A DNA stretch of 64,000 nt. It comes from Niabella sp. (GTDB taxonomy: Bacteria > Bacteroidota > Bacteroidia > Chitinophagales > Chitinophagaceae). Under the pieces are notes generated by a model. That model was not told the DNA's origin, did no database searches, and saw only the letters and a list, made by a program, of their open reading frames with translations. This document shows positions 2,402 through 52,013 of the stretch, one piece after another (position 1 is the stretch's first letter; each line of letters opens with the position of its first letter). The stretch covers positions 32,123 to 96,122 of the forward strand of contig JBKEEB010000016.1 in NCBI GenBank assembly GCA_047975735.1. The letters are read 5' to 3'. Position numbers and translations under genes: made by a program.

Positions 2402-2593
2402 TTAAGAAAGTTGCAGGGTTATAAATACCACTACCAACACCCATACAAACAAACCGATTAAATATGGAATAACAAAACTGCGAAAAGCAATAGTTTTTGA
2501 AACGCCAAACTGTATGGCATACAACTCTCTGTACCTACCCAACAAAACAACACCTCCCAAATATTGATTGTTTGGAGTGGATAAACTAACCAT
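2402..2593 (-). CDS. small hydrophobic membrane protein (unknown function)
   Basis: 63-aa ORF with a C-terminal TM segment. Its stop lies 1 nt from the next start (2400), consistent with operon packing. No recognisable family. Confidence 0.35.
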   Translation of the reverse strand: MVSLSTPNNQYLGGVVLLGRYRELYAIQFGVSKTIAFRSFVIPYLIGLFVWVLVVVFITLQLS

Positions 2594-2624
2594 TTAGGTA
2601 AATTATCTATATTGTATAAATTAA

Positions 2625-3128
2625 TTAGTGACCAGGTATGTATGCCAAATCTTGTAAAGTATCTACTTCTTTAAAAAAGCTAATGATTAGGAATTTTACA
2701 AGCAACATAACAACAAAAACGTACTCGGCTTTTAGACATACATTAAAATTACTTTTGAAGCTAGTTCTTGAATCGCTAAATAACAAGCCAATACTTAAAA
2801 CCATAGAGTTAAATAGAATCTTTATGAGAAAGATAAGGGGAATGAATAGATAAGTTACATATTCAAATTTTTCTTGTAAAGCTAACCTCTCCCTAATCCT
2901 CTCATGCGTTAATTGTCCAGAATAAGTGTTGAACAAAACACCTTCATTTATAAAAGAAGTAGTGTTAAGGAAGGCTATTACGACCATAAATGCACAATAC
3001 ACCCAGAATATGATGCCGAAATTGACTTCTAAGAGCTCTTCACCTAACTTTTTCTTCATTTTTTTTGATAAAAACCATGTCACAAAAAAAGTACTCATTT
3101 GGTATCTTTTATTCCCAAAGGAGTACAC
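2625..3128 (-). CDS. polytopic membrane protein (unknown function)
   Basis: 167-aa ORF with several hydrophobic segments, on the same strand and in the same operon as the bacteriocin-like gene. The start is uncertain (alternative Met at 3098). Confidence 0.45.
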   Translation of the reverse strand: MYSFGNKRYQMSTFFVTWFLSKKMKKKLGEELLEVNFGIIFWVYCAFMVVIAFLNTTSFINEGVLFNTYSGQLTHERIRERLALQEKFEYVTYLFIPLIFLIKILFNSMVLSIGLLFSDSRTSFKSNFNVCLKAEYVFVVMLLVKFLIISFFKEVDTLQDLAYIPGH

Positions 3129-3205
3129 GAACTGGGTATTTTAGAGAAAAATTAAGATATTGGTATTTTTACAATGCTTTAAATGCCATTGTTACGATGT
3201 TAACG

Positions 3206-3415
3206 TCAGTTGTGTTTCGCCGCTTTATTGCCACGAATTTTCATGAGTTCAAAAAAAGCGGCGATAGTGCTTAATAAAACTCCGGTAAACGTAAGATATA
3301 TCCAAATATCATGAAACATATTAAAGCGTATCGCACAACCCCCTATAAGGCCAAGCAGCGTCAGCCCTACAAAAAAGATAACTTTAATAATCTTAGTTCT
3401 TTTGTAATTTTCCAT
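3206..3415 (-). CDS. two-TM small protein, candidate bacteriocin immunity protein
   Basis: 69 aa with two predicted TM helices, located 14 nt downstream of the bacteriocin-like precursor. The assignment rests on position only. Confidence 0.4.
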   Translation of the reverse strand: MENYKRTKIIKVIFFVGLTLLGLIGGCAIRFNMFHDIWIYLTFTGVLLSTIAAFFELMKIRGNKAAKHN

Positions 3416-3429
3416 TTCCTATATTAGGC

Positions 3430-3654
3430 TTAAAAACACGACATAAGTCCTGCTGTACTCACTGAATATCCTGCGGCGGTTAATACTGCACTTCGAACAG
3501 ATGTTGCAGCCAATGCACCAACAGGCCCCATGGTTACCAAGGATGCAAAAGTAAGACCCCAACCAGCAACAGCTAAACTGCAGCCAACCCATTCAGCAGC
3601 TGATTTTTTGCCGGCTTGGATACATTCCATTTGATTCAATTTCAATTTTTTCAT
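3430..3654 (-). CDS. class II bacteriocin-like precursor with double-glycine-type leader
   Basis: 74 aa. The leader is 'MKKLKLNQMECIQAG', with hydrophobic residues at -4, -7 and -12 and Ala-Gly at -2/-1. The 59-aa core is Gly/Ala-rich and hydrophobic, with GxxxG-like spacing and one Cys near each end. Confidence 0.6.
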   Translation of the reverse strand: MKKLKLNQMECIQAGKKSAAEWVGCSLAVAGWGLTFASLVTMGPVGALAATSVRSAVLTAAGYSVSTAGLMSCF

Positions 3655-3894
3655 AATTTAGAAATTTAGTGTTTCCCTCCCCCTGTCTATCGCCTTGGGG
3701 CGGTTGTTCAGCGTTCAATTTTAAATATGATTTGAAGAACATAGGTATTGCTTTTTCTTTGTGGCAATACCCATCACGCAATTGTAGCTACCAATATTTT
3801 TATAAAAGAAATTTTTTAATAACGAAATTAAAACGGCTTCACGGTTTCAGAGCCTCTTCATACACTTAGCTATGCTAAAATTAGGGAATATTTA

Positions 3895-3903
3895 GGGGGG
3901 GGG
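3895..3903. repeat. G9 homopolymer (C9 on the strand of the bacteriocin-like gene)
   Basis: Read directly: tttag-ggggggggg-ttaat, in the AT-rich spacer ~240 nt upstream of the ATG at 3654. Confidence 0.9.
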
Positions 3904-4035
3904 TTAATAGTTAAAAAAATGTTAAAACAAAAAATAATATTGGTTATCAATTAATTGTCAGTAAAAAAGATCAAAATAGGTAGCTATAACCAGCTCTTAT
4001 AATTTAATGAGATTACAATACAAAAATATCGTAAC

Positions 4036-20804: not shown

Positions 20805-20899
20805 GACTTTTAGATTTATGATTTGGGTTTTTTTCTAAATCCAAACCAGTGAATAAATTCGGCTGTACCGTGTCAGGAATTACAGCCTACTTTTAAGAA

Positions 20900-20952
20900 T
20901 GAAAAATGAAGAGTGAAAAATGAAGATTCAAATATTAATTTTCATTTTTCAC
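20900..20952. repeat. three copies of tgaaaaatgaa (two direct, one inverted) in the rpoA-rplQ spacer
   Basis: tgaaaaatgaaga occurs at 20900-20912 and 20914-20926. The inverted copy ttcatttttcac is at 20941-20952, giving a 12-bp stem with 20913-20924. Confidence 0.85.
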
Positions 20953-20963
20953 GCATAATTATA

Positions 20964-23332: not shown

Positions 23333-23402
23333 CTCCTAAACCCACTCTCCTCCTGCACCTGGTATCCGAGTTAAGTTTAGTGTTGATGGGTGCTTATAAT
23401 AT

Positions 23403-23432
23403 AATTGACAATTGAGAGTTCTCAATTGTCAA
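23403..23432. repeat. perfect 14-bp inverted repeat immediately downstream of rpsM
   Basis: attgacaattgaga-gt-tctcaattgtcaat, 8 nt from the rpsM stop codon. Confidence 0.85.
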
Positions 23433-23439
23433 TTATTTA

Positions 23440-31958: not shown

Positions 31959-32387
31959 ATGAAAAATATATTTTACTATTTTTTATGCCTGCTTTTTTTA
32001 GTACCGGCCTGTAGCAGCCCGGCAGATAGAGAAAAGAATGAAGCCGCTGAAAACGATATTGATGCTGCAAGAAGTTTTATACAGGCTGCCTTAAAAGGCC
32101 AGTACAGTAAAGCCAGAGATTTTATGTTAAAAGATTCTGCCAACGAGGAGCATTTAGATGCCGTATCGCGTATGCACTTATCAACAGCCGAAAAACAGGG
32201 ACTTTGGGATGCCTCCATTAACATTCACAGTCGTCAACTCATCAACGACTCTACCAGTATTATTGTTTTTTCCAATTCTTTTCATAAAGAAAATAAGGAT
32301 ACCTTAAAAATCGTAAGGGTAAATGGTAGTTGGCAGGTTGACTTCAAATACCTTTTTACCCAGGCTATGCCGGAAAATATAAATTAG
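31959..32387 (+). CDS. lipoprotein, tandem paralog-like of the preceding gene
   Basis: The start was chosen at 'MKNIFYYFLCLLFLVPACSSP'. 'ARSFIQAALKGQYSKA' has the same architecture as the upstream gene. Confidence 0.6.
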   Translation: MKNIFYYFLCLLFLVPACSSPADREKNEAAENDIDAARSFIQAALKGQYSKARDFMLKDSANEEHLDAVSRMHLSTAEKQGLWDASINIHSRQLINDSTSIIVFSNSFHKENKDTLKIVRVNGSWQVDFKYLFTQAMPENIN

Positions 32388-40766: not shown

Positions 40767-41927
40767 ATGGCAAAAGAAAAAGTATTCATCTTCGACACTA
40801 CTTTAAGAGACGGCGAACAAGTTCCCGGATGTAAATTAAACACTGAGGAAAAAATAAAGTTGGCTCTAAAGTTAGAAGAGTTGGGCGTGGATATTATTGA
40901 AGCCGGCTTTCCGGTTTCCAGTCCCGGCGATTTTAAATCGGTTGAAGAAATTTCGCTCGCCATTACAAAAGCAACCGTGGTGGGGCTTACCCGCGCTGTT
41001 CAAAAAGATATTGAAGTGGCTGCCGACGCACTAAAAAAAGCTGTAAAACCACGTATTCACACCGGCATCGGCTCATCTGATAATCACATCAAATACAAAT
41101 TTAATTCTACGCGCGAAGAGATTTTGGAAAGAGCCGTAAAAGCTGTAAAACTCGCTCGTAATTTAGTGCCGGAGGTAGAGTTTTATGCCGAAGATGCCGG
41201 CCGTGCCGATTTAGCATTTCTGGCCCAATTGATTGAAGCCACCATTGATGCCGGTGCCACTATTATGAATATTCCGGACACAACGGGTTCCTGTCTGCCA
41301 CATGAATATCAGGCAAAAATGGAATACCTGATGAACCATGTTCCTAATATTGACAAAGCCATCCTTTCCTGCCACTGCCATAATGATTTGGGGTTGGCTA
41401 CAGCTAATTCCATTGCAGGTGCCATTGGAGGTGCCAGACAAATAGAATGTACCATTAATGGCATTGGCGAACGTGCCGGTAATACATCCTTAGAAGAAGT
41501 AGTGATGGTTATTAAAAAACATCCCAGCTTAAATCTATATACCAATATTGATACCACTAAGTTATTACCCATGAGCCGTTTGGTATCTGATACCATGCGT
41601 ATGATGGTACAACCTAATAAGGCCGTTGTAGGTGATAATGCCTTCTCCCATTCTTCCGGTATTCATCAGGATGGTTTCTTAAAAGAATCCACCACATACG
41701 AAATTATAGCACCCGAAGAAGTAGGTGCCGACACTTCGCATATTGTACTCACTGCACGTAGCGGACGTAGTGCATTGGCTTACCGCTTTAAGAATTTGGG
41801 ATACGAATTTGATCGCAATCAGGTGGACAACCTGTACCAACAATTTTTGGCAGTAGCCGATAGTAAAAAAGAGGTAGAAGATACCGATTTGAAAAAATTA
41901 GCCGATAATGTAATTGCAACAACTTAA
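40767..41927 (+). CDS. leuA: 2-isopropylmalate synthase, short form lacking the C-terminal regulatory domain (a citramalate/homocitrate-type enzyme cannot be excluded)
   Basis: '[11 protein letters not shown]' and '[12 protein letters not shown]' motifs. At 386 aa it is only the catalytic TIM barrel plus subdomain. Confidence 0.8.
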
Positions 41928-41982: not shown

Positions 41983-43110
41983 ATGTCAACTAAATTAACA
42001 AAAAAAATTGCCGTTATAGAAGGTGACGGCATCGGACCTGAAGTTACCCAACAATCTATTAAAGTTTTAAACGCAGTAGCCGAGCAATTTGGCCATCATT
42101 TTGAGTACAGCCATGTATTAATGGGTGCCTGTGCAATTGATAAAACAGGAACCCCATTACCACAAGAAACGATTGATATTTGCTTAGATAGCGATGCAGT
42201 TCTTTTAGGAGCCATTGGCGATCCCAAATACGATAATGACCCTGCTGCCAAAGTTCGCCCGGAACAAGGATTGTTAGGAATAAGAAAAGCATTACAATTA
42301 TACGCCAACATCCGCCCGGTTAACACTTACCCGGCATTACAGCATCTTTGCCCCTTAAAGCCGCAAAATGCTACTGATGTTGACTTTATTATTTACCGGG
42401 AACTAACCGGTGGTATTTATTTTGGTAAAAAAGAATTAAGCGAAGACGGAAACCGCGCCTCTGACGATTGTGTTTACACCAGACCCGAAATTGAAAGAAT
42501 TGCCAAGTTGGCTTTTGAACACGCACGCATCAGAAATAAAAAATTAACCTTGGTTGACAAAGCTAATGTATTAGAATCATCCAGACTTTGGAGAAAGGTA
42601 GTGCAGGAAATGGCTCCAAAATATGCTGATGTAACCGTAAACTATATGTTTGTTGATAATGCGGCGATGCAGATTATTGTTAACCCCAAACAATTTGACG
42701 TAATGCTTACAGAAAATATGTTTGGAGATATTTTGAGCGATGAAGCTAGTGTCATCAGCGGTTCTTTGGGTATGTTACCCTCCTCATCGGTAGGTAGTAA
42801 AGTAGCTTTGTTTGAACCGATACATGGCTCTTATCCGCAAGCCGCCGGTAAAAATATCGCCAATCCAATAGGTTCTATTTTATCAGTAGGAATGCTGTTA
42901 GATCATTTCGGATTAAACGAGGAAGCCCATATTGTTAGAGAAGCCGTAGCCTGGACATTACAAAACGGATTTGTTACAATCGACATTGACCCCGAAAATT
43001 CTTATTCCACAACTTCGGTAGGTGATTTAATTAGTGATTATGTAGTAGGAAAAATTCCCGGCTCCACCAAAGGTGAAAATATTGAAGCCCGAAAATCAAC
43101 CATTATTTAA
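41983..43110 (+). CDS. leuB: 3-isopropylmalate dehydrogenase
   Basis: 'IAVIEGDGIGPEV', 'YRELTGGIYFG' and 'NMFGDILSDEAS' motifs. Confidence 0.93.
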   Translation: MSTKLTKKIAVIEGDGIGPEVTQQSIKVLNAVAEQFGHHFEYSHVLMGACAIDKTGTPLPQETIDICLDSDAVLLGAIGDPKYDNDPAAKVRPEQGLLGIRKALQLYANIRPVNTYPALQHLCPLKPQNATDVDFIIYRELTGGIYFGKKELSEDGNRASDDCVYTRPEIERIAKLAFEHARIRNKKLTLVDKANVLESSRLWRKVVQEMAPKYADVTVNYMFVDNAAMQIIVNPKQFDVMLTENMFGDILSDEASVISGSLGMLPSSSVGSKVALFEPIHGSYPQAAGKNIANPIGSILSVGMLLDHFGLNEEAHIVREAVAWTLQNGFVTIDIDPENSYSTTSVGDLISDYVVGKIPGSTKGENIEARKSTII

Positions 43111-43214
43111 GAAAAACAAGTAAAAACCTGATTAAAAACCGGGCAATAAAATGAAGCTAAAGCTCATTGAGATTCGGAATCATTTATAATTTAGTTCTTT
43201 AAATACGATTTTTG

Positions 43215-43260
43215 TTAACATTGAAACATTATATTTGCGACACAACCATTTCAATGTTAA
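43215..43260. promoter_or_regulatory. 12-bp perfect inverted repeat bracketing the ilv leader promoter (candidate operator)
   Basis: TTAACATTGAAA (43215-43226) and TTTCAATGTTAA (43249-43260), 22 nt apart. The right arm contains the leader-peptide ATG, and the -7 box lies between the arms. Confidence 0.5.
43230..43237 (+). promoter_or_regulatory. candidate -7 box (TAtaTTTG) for the ilv leader and operon
   Basis: Exact TAnnTTTG match 17 nt upstream of the leader ATG, with a TTTG at 43211-43214 as a possible -33 element (spacing not ideal). Confidence 0.45.
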
Positions 43261-43352
43261 AAAAAATAATTAATAACAACATTAAAAACAACTACATCAT
43301 TGTAGTCATTATTGTTATTGTCATTTTACAACAAGGTGGTTATTATATCTGA
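43254..43352 (+). CDS. candidate ilv operon leader peptide (32 aa, Ile/Val-rich)
   Basis: Hand translation gives MLKKIINNNIKNNYIIVVIIVIVILQQGGYYI*. It has ten consecutive Ile/Val codons (43296-43325) followed by Leu, and 16 of 32 residues are branched-chain. It is followed by a terminator and then ilvD. Confidence 0.7.
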   Translation: MLKKIINNNIKNNYIIVVIIVIVILQQGGYYI

Positions 43353-43377
43353 TAACAATTTAATTAAAAGATAACAT

Positions 43378-43405
43378 GCCGCCTCCATAAAAGGCGGCTT
43401 TTTTT
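43378..43405 (+). terminator. attenuator terminator upstream of ilvD
   Basis: gccgcct-ccataaa-aggcggc followed by T7. It lies 26 nt after the leader stop and ~100 nt before the ilvD ATG. Confidence 0.75.
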
Positions 43406-43503
43406 ATGATGCTGCATAATCGAATGATAAAACAAGTCTGCCTATACCATTAGTGTGGCAATTAAGATGACAGATACACAAAAGTTGGTTAAACAAAAAT
43501 AAA

Positions 43504-45183
43504 ATGAGCGAATTAAACAAATATTCAAAAACCATTACACAGGATCCTACCCAACCTGCTGCGCAGGCACAATTATATGCCTTAGGGTTAACAGAAGAAG
43601 ATCTGGCAAAAGCGCAGGTAGGTATCGTAAGTATGGGGTACGATGGCAATCCCTGTAATATGCACCTGAACGATTTAGCTAAAGATGTAAAGAAAGGGGT
43701 ATGGGAGCAAACCCTTGTAGGGCTTATATTTCACACCATTGGTGTAAGCGATGGCATGAGTAACGGTACGCCCGGTATGCGCTACTCGCTGGTAAGCCGC
43801 GATGTAATTGCAGATTCAATAGAAACGGTTTGCGGCGCACAATATTACGATGCCCTCATTGCTGTTCCGGGTTGCGATAAAAACATGCCGGGTTCTATTA
43901 TGGCAATGGCCAGAATTAACAGGCCGTCCATTATGGTTTATGGTGGTACCATTGCACCGGGACATTATAAAGGTGAAGACCTGAATATTGTTTCAGCATT
44001 TGAAGCCTTAGGTAAAAAAATTGCCGGCACACTTGATGAAGGTGATTTTAAAGAAATAGTTAGACGGAGCTGCCCCGGTGCCGGTGCCTGTGGTGGTATG
44101 TACACCGCTAATACAATGGCTTCGGCAATTGAAGCAATGGGCATGAGTCTGCCATACAGCAGTAGCAATCCCGCCTTAAGCGAAGAAAAGAAAAAAGAAT
44201 GTTTAGAAGCCGGCAAATACATTCGACTGTTATTGGAAAAAGATATTAAACCCAAAGATATTATGACCCGTAAAGCATTTGAAAATGCCATTACGGTTAT
44301 TATGGTTTTAGGCGGCAGCACCAACGCTGTTTTACACTTATTGGCAATGGCTAAAAGTGTGGGTATTTCACTAACGCAAGACGACTTTCAGGCTATCAGT
44401 GATAAGGTGCCTGTTTTAGCCGACTTTAAACCCAGCGGAAAATATTTGATGGAAGACCTGCATAAAGTAGGCGGTGTACCGGCAGTAATGAAATACTTAC
44501 TGCAAAAAGGTTATTTGCACGGCGATTGCCTGACAGTAACCGGTAAAACCATTGCAGAAAATTTACAGGATGTTCCCGATTTGAATTTTGAAACACAGGA
44601 TATTGTTTCCCCACTCGAAAAGCCACTTAAAAAAACCGGCCATTTACAAATTTTATATGGCAACCTTGCCGAAAAAGGTAGTGTAGCCAAAATCAGCGGT
44701 AAAGAAGGAGAGCGTTTTGAAGGTACCGCCAGAGTTTTTGACGGAGAACAAAAATTGATTGCCGGTATCTCCGACGGAAAAGTAAAATCGGGCGATGTAG
44801 TGGTAATTAAAAACGAAGGACCTAAAGGAGCACCGGGAATGCCGGAAATGCTAAAACCCACTTCGGCCATTATTGGTGCCGGCTTGGGAAAATCAGTAGC
44901 ATTAATCACTGACGGGCGTTTTAGCGGCGGTACTCACGGCTTTGTAGTAGGGCATATTACCCCCGAAGCTTTTGAAGGCGGCTTATTGGGTATTGTAGAA
45001 GATGATGATATTATAGAAATTGATGCTGTTAACAACACCCTTACGTTAAAAGTGAGTGAAGAGGAAATTCAGAAACGTGTGGCCAACAAACCTACACCTC
45101 AATTAAAAGTAACAAATGGTGTATTATATAAATATGCCAAATTGGTAAAAGATGCTTCGCAAGGATGTGTAACTGATGAATAG
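43504..45183 (+). CDS. ilvD: dihydroxy-acid dehydratase
   Basis: 559 aa; '[20 protein letters not shown]', 'PGCDKNMPG' and '[11 protein letters not shown]' motifs. Confidence 0.95.
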
Positions 45184-45289
45184 CCCCCATATCCCCAAAG
45201 GGGACTTGTAAAATTTTTAATAATGACTAATTTTTCTTTAAATAGTAAAAGTTTGCAAAAAGCTCCTCCTTTAGAGGGGTTGGGGAGGC
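45183..45289. repeat. two GC-rich hairpin-type repeats at the 5' boundary of the ORF6N insert
   Basis: gcccccatatccccaaaggggac (45183-45205) contains a cccc/gggg hairpin. gctcctcctttagaggggttggggaggc (45262-45289) belongs to the same family as the repeats at 22725-22752 and 22849-22877. Confidence 0.55.
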
Positions 45290-45792
45290 TTCATTCCATA
45301 CAAAACAGAATTTATGAACTCAGAGGTGAGCGCATCATGCTTGACTTTGACTTGGCTGCTTTGTATGAGGTAGAAACAAGAATCTTTAATCAAGCTGTAA
45401 AAAGAAATATTAAACGTTTTCCGGAAGATTTCATGTTTCGGCTTACAAAAAAAGAATGGTCGGATATGAGGTCACAGATTGTGATGACATCAAAAAGACC
45501 CTTGACTGCCTTACCTTATGCCTTTACAGAACAAGGTGTGGCCATGCTGAGCGGCGTATTGAATAGCGACCGGGCTATTCAAATGAATATTGCCATCATG
45601 CGAGCATTTGTTGAGATAAGAAAAATATTGTTACTACAAAACGATGTAACGGAGCAATTGAAATTGCTAAAAGACCGAGTCAGCGGGCATGATATACAAC
45701 TAAACCAGATTTATGATGCGCTGGAAAATCTTTTAGACGAAAAAGCAGCAGAAAGAAAATGGATGAAAGAGACAAGATCGGTTTTAAAATGA
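45223..45792 (+). CDS. ORF6N (KilA-N-related) domain protein inserted between ilvD and ilvB
   Basis: 'IYELRGERIMLDFDLAALYEVETRIFNQAVKRNIKRFPEDFMFRLTKKEW' matches the ORF6N domain pattern. The first ~25 codons are encoded by the GC-rich repeat, so the start is uncertain. Confidence 0.75.
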   Translation: MTNFSLNSKSLQKAPPLEGLGRLHSIQNRIYELRGERIMLDFDLAALYEVETRIFNQAVKRNIKRFPEDFMFRLTKKEWSDMRSQIVMTSKRPLTALPYAFTEQGVAMLSGVLNSDRAIQMNIAIMRAFVEIRKILLLQNDVTEQLKLLKDRVSGHDIQLNQIYDALENLLDEKAAERKWMKETRSVLK

Positions 45793-45872: not shown

Positions 45873-47615
45873 ATGAACACGCTTGAAATACAAAAAGAAA
45901 AAACCAACGTAGAGTCTGCAAAAGCAGAAACCATAACCGGCTCTCAGGCTGTATTAGAAGCATTATTGGCCGAGAACGTAAAAACCATTTTTGGCTATCC
46001 CGGCGGTGCCATCATGCCTATATATGATGCATTATACGATTACAATGATAAATTAGACCACATCCTCGTTCGTCATGAACAAGGCGGCATTCACGCAGCA
46101 CAGGGATATGCCAGGGTAAGCGGAAGAACAGGCGTTGTTTTTGCAACCAGCGGTCCGGGTGCTACCAACTTAGTTACAGGCCTTGCCGACGCACAAATTG
46201 ATTCTACACCGCTGGTTTGTATTACCGGACAGGTATTTGCCCATTTATTAGGTACAGATGCTTTTCAGGAAACGGATGTAATAAATATTACAGCACCGGT
46301 AACCAAATGGAATTACCAGATTACCGATGCCAACGAAATACCACATGTATTAGCAAAAGCATTTTATATTGCTGCCAGTGGCAGGCCGGGACCGGTTTTA
46401 ATTGATATTACAAAAAACGCACAAATTCAAAACTTTGAATATAAAGGCTACGAAAAAGTAAACCATGTACGCAGCTATCGCCCACAGCCAATTGTAAGAA
46501 AAGAATATGTAGAGCAAGCAGCCACACTAATTAATGAAGCCAAAAAACCTTTCGTAATTTTTGGTCAGGGTGTTGTTTTAGGCAGGGCCGAAGAAGAATT
46601 TAAAGCTTTTATTGAAAAGGCAAACCTACCGGCAGCCTGGACGATTATGGGCATGGGTGCCATTCCTACTACACATCCCTTAGGAGTAGGCATGTTAGGC
46701 ATGCATGGTAATTACGGCCCCAATGTACTCACAAATGAATGTGATGTGTTGATTGCGGTGGGCATGCGTTTTGACGACCGTGTTACAGGCCGGTTAGACA
46801 AATATGCCAAGCAGGCCAAAGTTATCCACTTAGATATAGACCCTGCTGAGATTGATAAAAACGTTAAAACAACGGTACCTGTTTGGGGCGATTGTAAAGA
46901 AACCCTTCCGATGTTAACGGCCTTATTACAACCAAAAGGCAATAGCGAATGGTTAGCAAAATTTAAAGAATTTGAAAAACAAGAACAGGAACAATGCATA
47001 CAACCGGAAATGCACCCGGAAGGGGAAGTAATGAGTATGGCCGAGGTAGTGGATGCTTTAAACGAACTCACTAAAGGCGAAGCCGTAATTGTAAGCGATG
47101 TGGGTCAGCACCAAATGATAGCTTGCCGGTACGCGCAATTAAATAATTCTAAAAGTAATGTTACATCCGGTGGGCTGGGCACAATGGGCTTTGGGTTACC
47201 CGCAGCTATTGGAGCCAAACATGGCGCACCAGACCGCGAAGTAATTGCTATTATTGGCGATGGCGGCTTTCAAATGACTTTACAGGAATTAGGTACCATC
47301 ATGCAATTTGGAGCCAAAGTAAAAATATTAATACTCAACAACTCCTTCCTTGGCATGGTACGACAGTGGCAGCAATTGTTTAACGACAAAAGGTATTCTT
47401 TTGTAAATATTACCAGCCCGGATTTTGTGAAACTTGCTGAATCCTATTACATCTCCGGACAAAAAATTGACAAAAGAGAAAATTTAAAAGCGGCTTTAAA
47501 AACAATGCTGGAACATGACGGTGCATATCTGTTAGAGGTTATGGTTGGTAAAGAAAACAATGTATTCCCAATGGTTCCACAGGGGTGTAGCGTGGCTGAA
47601 ATAAGGTTGAAATAA
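45873..47615 (+). CDS. ilvB: acetolactate synthase large (catalytic) subunit
   Basis: 580 aa; ThDP enzyme motifs 'GYPGGAIMPIYDAL', 'GPGATNLVTG' and 'GDGGFQMTLQEL'. Confidence 0.95.
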   Translation: MNTLEIQKEKTNVESAKAETITGSQAVLEALLAENVKTIFGYPGGAIMPIYDALYDYNDKLDHILVRHEQGGIHAAQGYARVSGRTGVVFATSGPGATNLVTGLADAQIDSTPLVCITGQVFAHLLGTDAFQETDVINITAPVTKWNYQITDANEIPHVLAKAFYIAASGRPGPVLIDITKNAQIQNFEYKGYEKVNHVRSYRPQPIVRKEYVEQAATLINEAKKPFVIFGQGVVLGRAEEEFKAFIEKANLPAAWTIMGMGAIPTTHPLGVGMLGMHGNYGPNVLTNECDVLIAVGMRFDDRVTGRLDKYAKQAKVIHLDIDPAEIDKNVKTTVPVWGDCKETLPMLTALLQPKGNSEWLAKFKEFEKQEQEQCIQPEMHPEGEVMSMAEVVDALNELTKGEAVIVSDVGQHQMIACRYAQLNNSKSNVTSGGLGTMGFGLPAAIGAKHGAPDREVIAIIGDGGFQMTLQELGTIMQFGAKVKILILNNSFLGMVRQWQQLFNDKRYSFVNITSPDFVKLAESYYISGQKIDKRENLKAALKTMLEHDGAYLLEVMVGKENNVFPMVPQGCSVAEIRLK

Positions 47616-47697: not shown

Positions 47698-48093
47698 ATG
47701 GACGAAGTAGAAACATATAATATTGTAGAAGATGCCGGGCAGATGCTGTATAATATCAGGCATCGGTCATTTTATTTAGCAAAGGATATTATTAGCTTTA
47801 TCACTTCAGCAAAATACAATCGTATTTATTTCTCGCTTTTCGACCAATTACTCAGAAGTGCCACTTCAGTTGGAGCCAACCTTACAGAAGGTGTAGCCGG
47901 AAGTTCTAAAAATGATTTTTTAAAATATAACACTATTGCTTTAAAGTCAGCGAATGAAACAAAATACTGGCTTTGCTTAATCAGAGATACTGTTATTGGT
48001 GTTGATAAAATAATCATTAATAATTTATTAGCGGAAACCGTTGAAGTTGCAAAAATCATAGCAACCATTATCATTAATAGCAAAAAGCAATAG
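47698..48093 (+). CDS. four-helix-bundle protein (23S rRNA intervening-sequence protein / Avd-like family) inserted between ilvB and ilvN
   Basis: 131 aa. 'SATSVGANLTEGVAGSSKNDFLKYNTIALKSANETKYWLCLIRD' matches the family signature (S.GANI.EG...S..DF..FL.IA.GS..E..YWL). Confidence 0.8.
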   Translation: MDEVETYNIVEDAGQMLYNIRHRSFYLAKDIISFITSAKYNRIYFSLFDQLLRSATSVGANLTEGVAGSSKNDFLKYNTIALKSANETKYWLCLIRDTVIGVDKIIINNLLAETVEVAKIIATIIINSKKQ

Positions 48094-48137: not shown

Positions 48138-48725
48138 ATGAAACAACAATATACCATCACCGTTTACGCAGAAGACCATATAGGTTTACTATCGCGTATT
48201 GCTATCATTTTTTCCAGAAGGAAAATCAATATCGACAGCTTGAATACTTCTTCCTCCGAAATCGAAGGTATTCACCGTTTTAATATTTTGATTGACGAAA
48301 CCGAAGAGGTTGTAAAAAAATTATGTAAACAAATTGAAAAACAAGTTGAAGTACTGCGTGCTTTTTATAATACCAACGAAGAGATTATTTGGCAGGAGCT
48401 GGCATTATTTAAAGTACCGGCCAAAGAAGTAACCGATAAAATGGTAGTAGAAAGAATTTTGAGGCAGTACGGAGCAAGAATTGTTTGCGTAAGAACCGAT
48501 TTTGTAGTTTTTGAATCTACCGGACACTCGGAAGACAATGATGCTTTAGTAAAAAAATTAGAAGAATACAGTCTGATAGAATTTGTACGTGGTGCCAGAG
48601 TCGCCATCATTAAAGATAGTGAAGGCTTCCACAAAAGGCTAAAAGAATTTGAATTAGGCGACCCTGGAGAGGAAGTTACCGAAAACGAATTCTTAAACGA
48701 GAATGAGAAAGTTTTCACCATGTAA
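48138..48725 (+). CDS. ilvN: acetolactate synthase small (regulatory) subunit
   Basis: N-terminal ACT domain 'YTITVYAEDHIGLLSRIAIIFSRRKINIDSLNTS', in the expected position in the ilv cluster. Confidence 0.88.
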   Translation: MKQQYTITVYAEDHIGLLSRIAIIFSRRKINIDSLNTSSSEIEGIHRFNILIDETEEVVKKLCKQIEKQVEVLRAFYNTNEEIIWQELALFKVPAKEVTDKMVVERILRQYGARIVCVRTDFVVFESTGHSEDNDALVKKLEEYSLIEFVRGARVAIIKDSEGFHKRLKEFELGDPGEEVTENEFLNENEKVFTM

Positions 48726-48781: not shown

Positions 48782-50263
48782 ATGTCAAATTACTTTAACA
48801 CACTTCCACTGAGAGAGCAATTAAACCAGTTAGGCGTTTGCGAGTTTATGAGCAGCGATGAGTTTTTAGATGGCGTAGATGCGCTAAAAGGAAAAAAAAT
48901 TGTAATAGTGGGCTGTGGCGCACAAGGCCTTAACCAAGGGCTAAACCTTAGAGATAGCGGCTTAGATGTTTCTTACGCTTTGCGTAAAGAAGCCATCGAC
49001 GAAAAAAGAGCCAGCTGGAAAAATGCAACTGATAATAATTTTAACGTAGGTACTTATGAAGAACTGATTCCTACGGCCGATTTAGTAATCAATCTTACTC
49101 CTGACAAACAACACACTGCCGTAGTAAGTGCGGTAATGCCGTTAATGAAACAAGGTGCTACATTGTCATACTCGCACGGTTTTAATATTGTAGAAGAAGG
49201 CATGCAGGTACGTAAAGATATTACGGTAATTATGGTAGCACCAAAAAGCCCCGGCAGCGAGGTAAGAGCCGAGTACCTGCGTGGTTTTGGCGTACCTACA
49301 TTAATTGCAGTACACCCCGAAAACGATCCCAACGGTACCGGTTTAGATTGGGCAAAAGCCTATTGCGTAGGCACCGGCGGCCATCGTGCCGGTGTGTTAA
49401 GGTCGTCATTTGTTGCCGAAGTAAAAAGCGATTTAATGGGCGAGCAAACCATTCTTTGCGGATTATTACAAACAGGTTCCATTCTTTCTTTCAACAAAAT
49501 GATTGAAAAAGGAATTGACCCTGCCTATGCCTCCAAATTAGTACAATATGGTGTAGAAGTGGTTACCGAAGCTTTAAAACATGGTGGCGTTACCGGCATG
49601 ATGGACAGGTTAAGCAACCCTGCAAAAATCAAAGCATTCCAATTATCAGAGGAAATGAAAACCATCATGCGTCCTTTGTTCCAAAAACATCAGGACGATA
49701 TTATGAGTGGCGAGTTCAGCCGTGTAATGATGGAAGACTGGGCCAATGGCGATGCCAATCTTTTAAAATGGCGCGCAGAAACCGGCGAAACCGCATTTGA
49801 AAAAACACCTGCCGGCGATATGAAAATTGGCGATCAGGAATATTTTGACAACTATACTTTAATGGTGGCCTTTATTAAAGCAGGGGTAGAACTGGCTTTT
49901 GAAGTAATGGTAGAAGCCGGTATAAAACCAGAGTCGGCCTACTACGAGTCGCTGCACGAAACACCATTAATTGCCAATACCATTGCCCGTAAAAAATTGT
50001 TTGAAATGAACCGCGTAATTTCCGATACTGCCGAGTACGGCTGCTATCTTTTTGACCAGGCATGCAAACCACTATTGGCCAATTTTATGAAAAATATTGA
50101 TACCGATGTGGTAGGTAAAAATTATAACGAAGGGAAAAGTATGGCCGTTGACAATCAGGAATTGGTAGCTGTAAACGAAGCCATCCGCACACATCCGGTA
50201 GAAAAAATAGGAACAGTTTTGCGCAAAGCCATGACGGCAATGAAGGCAATAAAAACGGCGTAA
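48782..50263 (+). CDS. ilvC: ketol-acid reductoisomerase (long, class II form)
   Basis: 493 aa; '[19 protein letters not shown]' Rossmann motif and duplicated knotted domain. Confidence 0.95.
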
Positions 50264-50401: not shown

Positions 50402-50430
50402 TAATTGCGCGCCTTCGGCGCGCAATTTGT
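50402..50430 (+). terminator. intrinsic terminator ending the ilv operon
   Basis: aattgcgcgcc-ttc-ggcgcgcaatt (11-bp GC-rich stem) followed by tgtt. Confidence 0.7.
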
Positions 50431-50540: not shown

Positions 50541-50588
50541 GCTCACTATTCAGACATAAAAAGATTGCATCTAACAGTACAAAGGACA

Positions 50589-52013
50589 ATGCAAATCCTA
50601 CACATACAAAACCTCTCCATCCGCTACGGTTACAAAACTGTATTGGAAAATCTGTCGTTCACAATTAATAGTGGTGAGCAATGGGCAATTAGCGGCGAGA
50701 GCGGCAGTGGAAAAACCACTTTGGGGCACGCCATTGCCAATTATCAAAAATATGAGGACAGCATCAGTATTCAGTTCAATCCTCAATGTAGTTTACCCGA
50801 AAAAGTTTTGTTTGTAGAAAACTGGTACCGCTTTACCAATCTGGAAGGCGATCGAAATTTTTATTATCAGCAGCGTTATAATCATCAGCAAAAAAGAGAT
50901 ACCGTTTCCGTTGCCCGCGAATTAGAATTGTATGGTAAAGAGCATCATTTAAACAATGAAAAACCTGCCACACTTATTGATACTTTCCATTATGCAAAAG
51001 TTTTGGATGAACAGTTGTTTGAAATTTCCAGCGGCGAGCATAAAAAACTGCAGCTCATCAAAGCCTTGTGGTTACAACCACAAGTGTTAATTATAGACCA
51101 ACCTTATACGGGTTTAGACAAACAATCCCGTAGCAACCTTAACCATTTGCTCAATCAATATGCAACAAATGGCGGCACACTAATATTACTCAGTAATGAT
51201 GAGGAATTACCGCAATGTATCAACCAGTATGCAGCTCTGCAAAACGGTCAAATTGTTTTAGGAAAAAATACTGAAACACAGCAGCAAAAAGTCCTACAAC
51301 CACTCCCCTCTTTCCTTAGTGCAAAACCATTATACACTACGCCTCAGATCATCAGCATGAAAAATATTAAAGTCCGGTATGATGATCATATTGTTCTTTC
51401 CGGAATTAATTGGCAGGTAAATGCCGGAGAACGGTGGCTATTGCAAGGCCCCAATGGTTCGGGTAAATCTACGTTGCTAAGTTTAATTACTGCCGATCAT
51501 CCGCAGGCTTATGCCAACAACATTAAACTCTTTGGCGTACAACGTGGTGGTGGTGAAAGTATTTGGGATATTAAAAAACGTATCGGCCTCATCTCTCCGG
51601 AATTTCATTGGTACTTTGATGCTAACGCTACCGTATCGCAAAGCCTGGCTTCCGGTTTTTTTGATGCCAATGGTCAGTACCAAAACCTGCGGTACGCCCA
51701 AAAGCATCAACTCAACGAGCTGTTGCATTTCTTAGGTTTGTATAATGTAAAAGATGAATTATTAGTAACACTTCCGCTCGGCAAGCAAAGGTTGGCATTG
51801 TTAGGCCGCACCATTATAAAAAACCCGCAGCTATTGGTTTTGGACGAGCCTTGTCAGGGATTAGACCAACAACAAACCCAATACTTCAACAACCTTGTGG
51901 ATGAGATTAGCAAAAACGGCGTTACCATTATTTACGTTGGCCATTTTGAAACACAGTTACCCAAATGTTTGGATAGGAAGTTGGTATTGGAGAATGGGAT
52001 GGTTGTATCGTAA
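50589..52013 (+). CDS. tandem-NBD ABC ATPase without a membrane domain (ModF-like)
   Basis: There are two ABC cassettes. NBD1 has 'GESGSGKTT', 'SSGEHKKLQL' and 'LIIDQPYTGLD'; NBD2 has 'GPNGSGKST' and 'LVLDEPCQGLD'. The start was chosen at 'MQILHIQNLSIRYG'. Confidence 0.85.
   Translation: MQILHIQNLSIRYGYKTVLENLSFTINSGEQWAISGESGSGKTTLGHAIANYQKYEDSISIQFNPQCSLPEKVLFVENWYRFTNLEGDRNFYYQQRYNHQQKRDTVSVARELELYGKEHHLNNEKPATLIDTFHYAKVLDEQLFEISSGEHKKLQLIKALWLQPQVLIIDQPYTGLDKQSRSNLNHLLNQYATNGGTLILLSNDEELPQCINQYAALQNGQIVLGKNTETQQQKVLQPLPSFLSAKPLYTTPQIISMKNIKVRYDDHIVLSGINWQVNAGERWLLQGPNGSGKSTLLSLITADHPQAYANNIKLFGVQRGGGESIWDIKKRIGLISPEFHWYFDANATVSQSLASGFFDANGQYQNLRYAQKHQLNELLHFLGLYNVKDELLVTLPLGKQRLALLGRTIIKNPQLLVLDEPCQGLDQQQTQYFNNLVDEISKNGVTIIYVGHFETQLPKCLDRKLVLENGMVVS

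Follow-up and report, generated by a model that had tools for sequence, protein, structure and literature searches.

A predicted isoleucine/valine leader-peptide attenuator upstream of ilvD in Niabella sp. and its family in related Bacteroidota

In the 64,000-nucleotide (nt) stretch of Niabella sp. DNA analysed here, called the window (contig JBKEEB010000016.1, forward strand, positions 32,123 to 96,122), the gene leuB is separated from ilvD by a spacer of 393 nt, a length that is read from the sequence and agrees with an earlier, sequence-only reading of the locus. The genes ilvD, ilvB, ilvN and ilvC lie downstream of this spacer, and the question that it raises is how their transcription is controlled. 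The sequence-only reading had proposed an attenuator responding to isoleucine (Ile) and valine (Val), together with a protein operator in an inverted repeat; the attenuator gained strong comparative support from 46 relatives, and the operator was not supported. We propose, with a probability of about 85%, that the element is a ribosome-mediated leader-peptide transcription attenuator. The best explanation of its parts is that it senses the charging of the Ile and Val tRNAs and sets the read-through into ilvD, ilvB, ilvN and ilvC.

The leader, its terminator and its antiterminator

The leader is an open reading frame (ORF) of 32 codons plus UGA on the + strand (43254–43352), with the translation MLKKIINNNIKNNYIIVVIIVIVILQQGGYYI. 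It has no Shine-Dalgarno sequence; Bacteroidota start translation without Shine-Dalgarno pairing. Codons 15–24 (43296–43325, + strand) are ten consecutive Ile or Val codons by direct reading, and this regulatory run had been described before together with the ORF. In a six-frame scan of the 64 kb with a listing threshold of 7 of 10, it is the only ORF segment with Ile or Val at 10/10 positions, and the other segments listed have 7/10.

The ORF is followed on the + strand by an intrinsic terminator (43378–43405), which is recognised by its fold and by covariation in the family and which consists of GCCGCCU, a 7-nt loop (CCAUAAA), AGGCGGC and U7. The 7-bp G+C-rich stem occupies 43378–43398 and the U residues occupy 43399–43405; the hairpin alone has a folding energy of −12.1 kcal/mol. 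The GC-rich hairpin with its U7 tail had been seen in the sequence-only reading and also covaries in relatives, while the distance given there, twenty-six nt after the stop codon, holds for the first nucleotide of the hairpin only: 25 nt separate the two features and the hairpin begins at the 26th.

Relatives were collected through IlvD, with one genome per species, which gave 80 loci, mostly from Chitinophagaceae and Sphingobacteriaceae. When these ilvD loci were scanned for short ORFs rich in Ile and Val, 46 non-redundant homologous leaders emerged, mostly in Chitinophagaceae, and Pedobacter has a short leader variant with the same terminator. The leaders have 24–38 codons with an Ile/Val run of 8–12 codons, a typical peptide being MLSSKLNNVITKIAVIIIVIVIIIPALHGGGTSL. 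Across the 46 loci, conservation extends to the ORF and its frame, to where the run lies and to the position of the stop codon relative to a G-rich strand, and in most of them to the promoter. A covariance model (R1) built from 45 relatives, with the window left out, matched the window over its full length at 43302–43408 (64.3 bits, E about 3e-10), and the next match reached 17.2 bits; the window element is therefore a member of the family and its sole copy in the window.

The runs of the 46 relatives are composed of 54% Ile, 39% Val (93% for the two together) and 2.7% leucine (Leu), with almost no Leu, phenylalanine (Phe) or alanine (Ala). This composition fits regulatory codons, unlike that of a membrane helix, and on the same grounds Leu is not a regulatory codon of the leader family. 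The Val codon GUC, which is otherwise rare, accounts for 35% of the leader Val codons, against 9% in ilvD.

The terminator is present in all 46 relatives as CCCGCCUCC...GGCGGG with a U-run, 19–37 nt after the stop codon. In alignment A1, 96.6% of the cells of its helix are paired and 21 cells are compensatory, and the observed covariation score was reached by none of 500 shuffles. When RNAalifold was applied to the full leader alignment, the terminator was the sole consensus helix predicted, and no conserved helix was returned inside the leader ORF.

The 5′ arm of the terminator has a second partner. The segment AGGUGGU (43334–43340, + strand), which begins 8 nt past the Ile/Val run, overlaps two glycine (Gly) codons and stops 9 nt short of the UGA, can pair with GCCGCCU (43378–43384), so that this arm is common to both helices. 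The pairing had been proposed, as AGGTGG(T) with CCGCCT, in the sequence-only reading. Window RNA cut before the 3′ arm of the terminator folds into this antiterminator together with an inner helix (43346–43373, + strand) formed by UAUCU (43346–43350) and AGAUA (43369–43373), which reaches into the stop codon. The energy of this fold is −13.5 kcal/mol, against the −12.1 kcal/mol of the terminator, with z = −3.7, and none of 200 shuffles equalled it.

The same arrangement is found across the family, in which the strand and its spacing are conserved. In a search from the 5′ untranslated region (UTR) to the terminator, the best complement of the terminator 5′ arm was one and the same site in 46/46 relatives. 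Its strand is mostly GGAGGUGG, encoded by a conserved C-terminal Gly-Gly-Gly; it starts 2–14 nt (median 11) past the final codon of the run, and the median distance from its end to the stop codon is 3 nt. The 8-bp antiterminator helix is 85% paired in alignment A1, against 51–63% when the partner is slid by 1–3 columns, and one of its pairs switches among U-G, A-U and C-G. The helix also appears in all 46 truncated RNAs, with a mean of −14.5 kcal/mol that equals the mean of the terminators, and the spacer adds a modest inner helix that is significant (p ≤ 0.05) in 14 of them. GGA serves as the first Gly codon in 36 of 42 leaders, compared with a share of 24% in the ilvD genes of these loci, and the constraint therefore lies on the RNA and not on the peptide; the nominal p for this bias is overstated, the sequences being related.

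A further helix is possible. The 5′ UTR strand AACCAUUU (43244–43251, + strand), just upstream of the AUG, can pair with AGGUGGUU (43334–43341), which may act as an anti-antiterminator resembling the classical 1:2 helix. It is present in the minimum-energy fold of 43240–43410 and is not favoured in the truncated RNA. In relatives, the 5′ UTR and AUG (often CCUUCAUG) can pair with (CAU)GGAGG. The mean energy of this pairing is −9.5 kcal/mol, against −6.6 for shuffled sequences, with z < −1.64 in 19 of 46, which gives it weak-to-moderate support.

Promoter, proposed mechanism and points against it

Upstream of the leader, the −7 box TATATTTG (43230–43237, + strand) matches the TAnnTTTG of the Bacteroidota sigma-A consensus, whose other part is a −33 TTTG (PMC7366714). 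The sequence-only reading had recognised this box, which is conserved, and had placed it 17 nt before the leader ATG; the distance is 16 nt. The TA and TT of the box are invariant in the 38 aligned relatives, in which the usual order is AGTTCTTTG carrying the −33 TTTG, 19 nt, TAnnTTTG and then the ATG 16–18 nt further on (29–32 nt in Chitinophaga). The window has the AGTTCTTT box in the form AGTTCTTTA (43193–43200, + strand), whose columns are at least 90% conserved in alignment A2, and a putative alternative −33-like TTTG (43211–43214, + strand) located 15 nt upstream of the −7 box. A sigma-70 promoter scan was set aside, since its model is not applicable to Bacteroidota.

Transcript ends were sought in public RNA data. 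Six contigs from soil and root metatranscriptomes, from Chitinophaga about 92% identical to locus L020, start 9–20 nt past the −7 box; the contigs are unstranded, and two of the six are one 331-nt record deposited under two runs. Only a seventh Chitinophaga-like contig, from a library of unknown type, reaches upstream of the −7 box. Some of the Chitinophaga-like contigs end around the terminator and others read through it. These contigs support the promoter in a member of the family, not in the present organism. For a Sediminibacterium relative, nothing was found in poly(A) RNA reads, its other runs being of unknown kind. In Sediminibacterium magnilacihabitans (L036, about 3745–3765), an extra perfect hairpin, CCCCGGACTTAAGTCCGGGG, lies between the −7 box and the leader ATG.

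The spacing in the window (8 nt from run to strand and 9 nt from strand to stop; family medians 11 and 3) matches the classical masking logic, and the specific mechanism, with the antiterminator strand hidden under a ribosome at the stop codon, is likely. The RNA would start a few nt past the TATATTTG box, and the 32-codon leader would be translated with no Shine-Dalgarno sequence. With an ample supply of Ile and Val, the ribosome would reach the UGA; a ribosome with UGA in the A site should cover about 15 nt upstream, and its footprint would include AGGUGGU and the inner helix. Since AGGUGGU, ending 9 nt before the stop, would be covered in this way, GCCGCCU would pair with AGGCGGC, and the hairpin with U7 would end transcription. 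When Ile or Val is scarce, the ribosome would stall within codons 15–24 and AGGUGGU would stay free, capturing GCCGCCU as it leaves the polymerase, before the 3′ arm is made, with the assistance of the inner helix. No terminator would then form, and the ilv genes would be transcribed. We infer from this scheme both a coupling of ribosome and polymerase and a response to amino-acid supply.

Several observations weigh against this interpretation. The window antiterminator is a GGUGG variant of 7 bp that includes two G-U pairs. The GGAGG/CCUCC core of the family hardly varies and is therefore uninformative for or against the helix, and true covariation is confined mainly to one column and to the Chitinophaga clade. 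No conserved counterpart of the classical 1:2 helix was established in the family. The 46 leaders are phylogenetically related, and p-values computed over them are not independent tests. In the window, the conserved upstream box lies 29 nt from the −7 box instead of 20, a displacement of about 9 nt, and the alternative TTTG lies 15 nt from it instead of the 19 nt of the family. The window sequence was present in no public sequencing run. In Niabella ginsengisoli, the closest relative found (IlvD 89% identical), leuA stands directly before ilvD and no leader was found. To our knowledge, transcription-translation coupling has been neither demonstrated nor studied in Bacteroidota.

The N. ginsengisoli locus (L001) has other peculiarities. 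Its leuA (2584–3740) is apparently split by frame shifts, with an ORF of 304 amino acids (aa) and leuA-like sequence beyond it, and both leuB and the leader are missing before ilvD. Part of these leuA/leuB differences may be sequencing error, because the name of the contig suggests an uncorrected long-read assembly.

The inverted repeat and other explanations

The −7 box lies inside an inverted repeat, which the sequence-only reading had described as a perfect 12-bp repeat. The repeat is real and larger: its arms of 19 nt are complementary at 18 of 19 positions and stand 22 bp apart, and it ranks third among the inverted repeats listed for the window. The 5′ arm (43208–43226, + strand) is upstream of the −7 box and is thus transcribed only in RNA that starts further upstream; the 3′ arm (43249–43267, + strand) spans the AUG, the 5 nt of 5′ UTR that precede it and codons 2–5. 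Folded as RNA, the window repeat has an energy of −11.9 kcal/mol (z = −2.95; z = −5.9 against shuffled arms). The Ile/Val run and the terminator are conserved in the 46 relatives, and only 9 of them have a significant repeat here, with a family mean z of −0.5.

The alternative that survives best would add to attenuation. In it, the repeat acts as RNA only in transcripts reading in from leuA-leuB, where the hairpin would bury the AUG, so that no ribosome would stand at the stop, the antiterminator would form by default and leu-initiated RNA would bypass the Ile/Val attenuation. Transcripts from the internal ilv promoter would lack the 5′ arm and remain regulated. We hold this proposal to be doubtful. 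Equally tentative is its general form, that the attenuator reads the origin of the transcript besides the availability of Ile and Val. The stretch from the −33 box to the −7 box would occur only in RNA from leuA-leuB, and it would carry either the AUG-burying strand, as in the window, or a copy of the terminator 3′ arm, GGCGGGTG, as in most relatives; leu-initiated RNA would therefore pass the terminator regardless of Ile/Val, and RNA from the ilv promoter would stay attenuated. If true, this would couple the shared ilv enzymes to the demand for leucine.

Gene order speaks for such a role. A co-directional leuB stands directly before the leader in 36 loci (35 relatives and the window), often with leuA before it, and 33 of the 36 have no terminator between the leuB stop codon and the leader promoter, a gap of sometimes only 50–70 nt; in the window, no terminator-like site was found in this interval (43111–43214). 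The attenuator is thus an internal promoter and terminator within a leu-then-ilv string, and its terminator is the first that leu transcripts meet. The fate proposed for such transcripts is consistent with the position of the window hairpin over the AUG and codons 2–5 and with the folding of ribosome-free truncated RNA into the antiterminator. The arms vary by lineage and stay complementary (GTGAAATGTA/TACATTTCAC; GGGTGTAT/ATACATCC, with one G-U; ATAGAGGTGTT/AACACTTCTAT), and across the relatives the repeat folds slightly better on the + than on the − strand (p = 0.04). Against the proposal stands the small number of relatives in which the repeat is significant.

A second upstream element bears on the same proposal. 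In 27 of 46 relatives, the segment abutting the −7 box (GGCGGGTG; GGCGGG(T/A)G) is complementary to the terminator 5′ arm (p ≤ 0.05) and has the same sequence as the terminator 3′ arm, as in L010 (about 2700–2715), L072 and L058; GGCGGG(T/A)G is conserved at this place in most Chitinophagaceae leaders. The segment, and with it the complementarity, is missing in the window and in loci that lack an upstream leuB, and it could instead be a promoter or a protein-binding element. Of the 36 loci with leuB upstream, 30 have either the repeat or the GGCGGGTG-type element, compared with 1 of the 8 that lack leuB there (Fisher p = 0.0003), but the association rests on few independent events, because the loci without leuB belong to about three clades. 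An activated-sludge RNA contig covers the promoter region and leader of an L006-like relative, although it could come from contaminating DNA. In addition, a second leader upstream of leuA was looked for in the window and in N. ginsengisoli and none was found, and no regulation of leuA is known here.

The repeat could also be a DNA operator for a dimeric repressor or activator over the promoter, giving dual control with attenuation, as the sequence-only reading had suggested. A near-perfect palindrome bracketing the −7 box and start site occupies a typical place for a repressor, and pairing in the window is no weaker on the − strand (−14.1 kcal/mol) than on the + strand (−12.0 kcal/mol), as expected of a DNA palindrome. 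The half-site, however, does not occur elsewhere in the 64-kb window beyond chance expectation with 2 mismatches allowed, its sequence is lineage-specific and missing from most relatives, the edge-to-edge distance of 22 bp between the half-sites would be unusual for a dimeric regulator, and no regulator gene is evident beside the operon. An operator is improbable on these grounds, and as a family-wide account of the repeat a conserved one was rejected, given the lack of recurrence, the 9 relatives of 46 and the differing sequences. As far as the sequences indicate, the repeat fits an RNA hairpin in leuB-derived transcripts better than a conserved transcription-factor site.

It is very improbable that the hairpin is the plain terminator of leuA-leuB and the ORF a chance frame or a small hydrophobic membrane peptide: the hairpin is indeed the first terminator after leuB and the ORFs of relatives are annotated as hypothetical proteins, one of them as a membrane anchor, but the ORF, frame, run, stop-to-G-strand spacing and promoter are conserved over 46 loci, the run is 93% Ile and Val with almost no Leu, Phe or Ala, a synonymous position of a Gly codon is conserved, which indicates constraint at the RNA level, and ilvE or ilvD follows the element in every case. 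The composition of the run and the codon-level bias (GGA, GUC) led to the rejection of a functional membrane peptide.

Gene order and comparison with known systems

Directly upstream of the attenuator, leuB (41983–43110, + strand; NCBIfam TIGR00169, 1.2e-133) is co-directional with the leader and preceded by a short form of leuA (40767–41927). The 386-aa LeuA matches only positions 3–384 of the 516-position 2-isopropylmalate synthase profile, and for this reason it appears to lack the C-terminal region that serves other LeuA proteins as the leucine-feedback domain. The tblastn matches to leuA of relatives are similar in length to the short LeuA of the window.

Downstream, ilvD (43504–45183), as the first gene under the predicted control, is followed by ilvB (45873–47615), ilvN (48138–48725) and ilvC (48782–50263), all on the + strand. 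The sequence-only reading had named these genes correctly as a series, which is broken by two unrelated ORFs: an ORF6N-domain gene of 189 aa between ilvD and ilvB (45223–45792; Pfam PF10543, 8.5e-35) and a '23S rRNA-intervening sequence protein' gene of 131 aa between ilvB and ilvN (47698–48093; PF05635). ORF6N-like genes are found at the same ilvD-ilvB position in L001, L006, L009, L052, L061, L073 and L075, and an A/T-rich 19-nt inverted repeat (47626–47644/47670–47688) lies just upstream of the 23S rRNA-intervening sequence protein gene. In relatives, the leader is always upstream of ilvE or ilvD, and it is followed by ilvE-ilvD-ilvB-ilvN-ilvC or, as in the window, directly by ilvD.

Other sites were observed around these genes. 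A strong two-way terminator-like palindrome, AATTGCGCGCCGAAGGCGCGCAATT (50403–50427), lies 140 nt downstream of ilvC and is probably the end of the ilv unit. The gene after it (50565–52013) encodes an ATPase with two ABC domains, and similar genes precede leuB in some Sediminibacterium loci. Further away, the window contains a perfect 17-bp palindrome with a 2-nt centre (23401–23436; ATAATTGACAATTGAGA/TCTCAATTGTCAATTAT) and an imperfect 32-nt inverted repeat built of GAAAAATGAA-like units (20893–20960). Outside the family, Elizabethkingia argenteiflava (L007) has a short Ile/Val-rich frame without ATG upstream of ilvD (3779–3865; ..LVINIIVIIIQNK..), followed at about 3888–3917 by a strong terminator that is unrelated to that of the family. 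This may be an analogous attenuator of Flavobacteriales with a non-ATG start.

Textbooks describe leader-peptide attenuation for Proteobacteria, and it is also documented for Actinobacteria and some Firmicutes. Computational attenuator predictions that include Bacteroidetes were reportedly made by Vitreschak et al. in 2004 and Lopatovskaya et al. in 2010. The latter work is cited in PMC4833913. According to PMC2965389, published in 2010, no leader peptides had by then been demonstrated in bacteria other than Proteobacteria and Actinobacteria. No description of leader-peptide attenuation of Bacteroidota ilv genes was found in the searchable literature.

Databases gave a similar result. The leader peptides matched no leader-peptide family of Pfam or NCBIfam; for NF007744, the family of the Escherichia coli ilvL peptide (cut-off 59 bits), the window peptide gave no match and the best relative reached 13.6 bits (E = 0.035). 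Those peptides of relatives that are annotated carry the label hypothetical protein, apart from one that is wrongly called a succinate dehydrogenase membrane anchor. At gathering score, Rfam had no match in the whole 64-kb window, and a permissive scan of 43000–43600 returned only sub-threshold leader and small-RNA matches driven by the terminator (24.4 bits for Phe_leader and 19.4 for Thr_leader, where the gathering score is 55). With Thr_leader (RF00506) and Phe_leader (RF01859) the element shares its overall layout, in which a spacer lies between the end of a leader ORF and an intrinsic terminator.

Judged from sequence comparison, then, the leader is a genuine, well-conserved and unannotated Ile/Val attenuator family of a mechanism type already known. 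Naming it would correct the annotation of many genomes. The logic of an attenuator needs ribosome-polymerase coupling, and the element would thus offer a compact genetic handle on coupling in Bacteroidota, as well as an Ile/Val-responsive control element for their engineering.

Among the known systems, the leader of E. coli ilvGMEDA resembles it in having a branched-chain-rich leader of 32 residues, an intrinsic terminator and ilv genes including ilvD, and ilvE is also downstream in most relatives of the present family. The logic is the same, since a ribosome stalled at the regulatory codons lets the antiterminator form, and the E. coli ilvBN leader works likewise in function. On the other hand, ilvL counts Ile, Val and Leu, and the present family only Ile and Val. 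Moreover, the family has no Shine-Dalgarno sequence and no conserved 1:2 helix inside the ORF, its antiterminator 5′ strand is encoded by Gly codons beside the stop, and the element sits between leuB and the ilv genes with its own promoter.

Outside Proteobacteria, the Corynebacterium ilvBNC leader or upstream ORF (PMC10272879, PMC11857589) and other actinobacterial leaders (PMC1262725) share the short ORF of branched-chain codons and the alternative hairpins, and they too were recognised mainly by comparative genomics. These systems differ in phylum, sequence, promoter type and first regulated gene, which there is ilvB. The Leu-rich attenuator peptide of Staphylococcus aureus ilv-leu (PMC5794164) and the T-box of Bacillus ilv-leu are likewise cis-acting RNA switches that use premature termination in a string of ilv and leu genes. 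Their signal is Leu, read through a peptide or uncharged tRNA, and they stand first in an ilv-then-leu operon, whereas the element described here would sense Ile and Val in the middle of a leu-then-ilv string.

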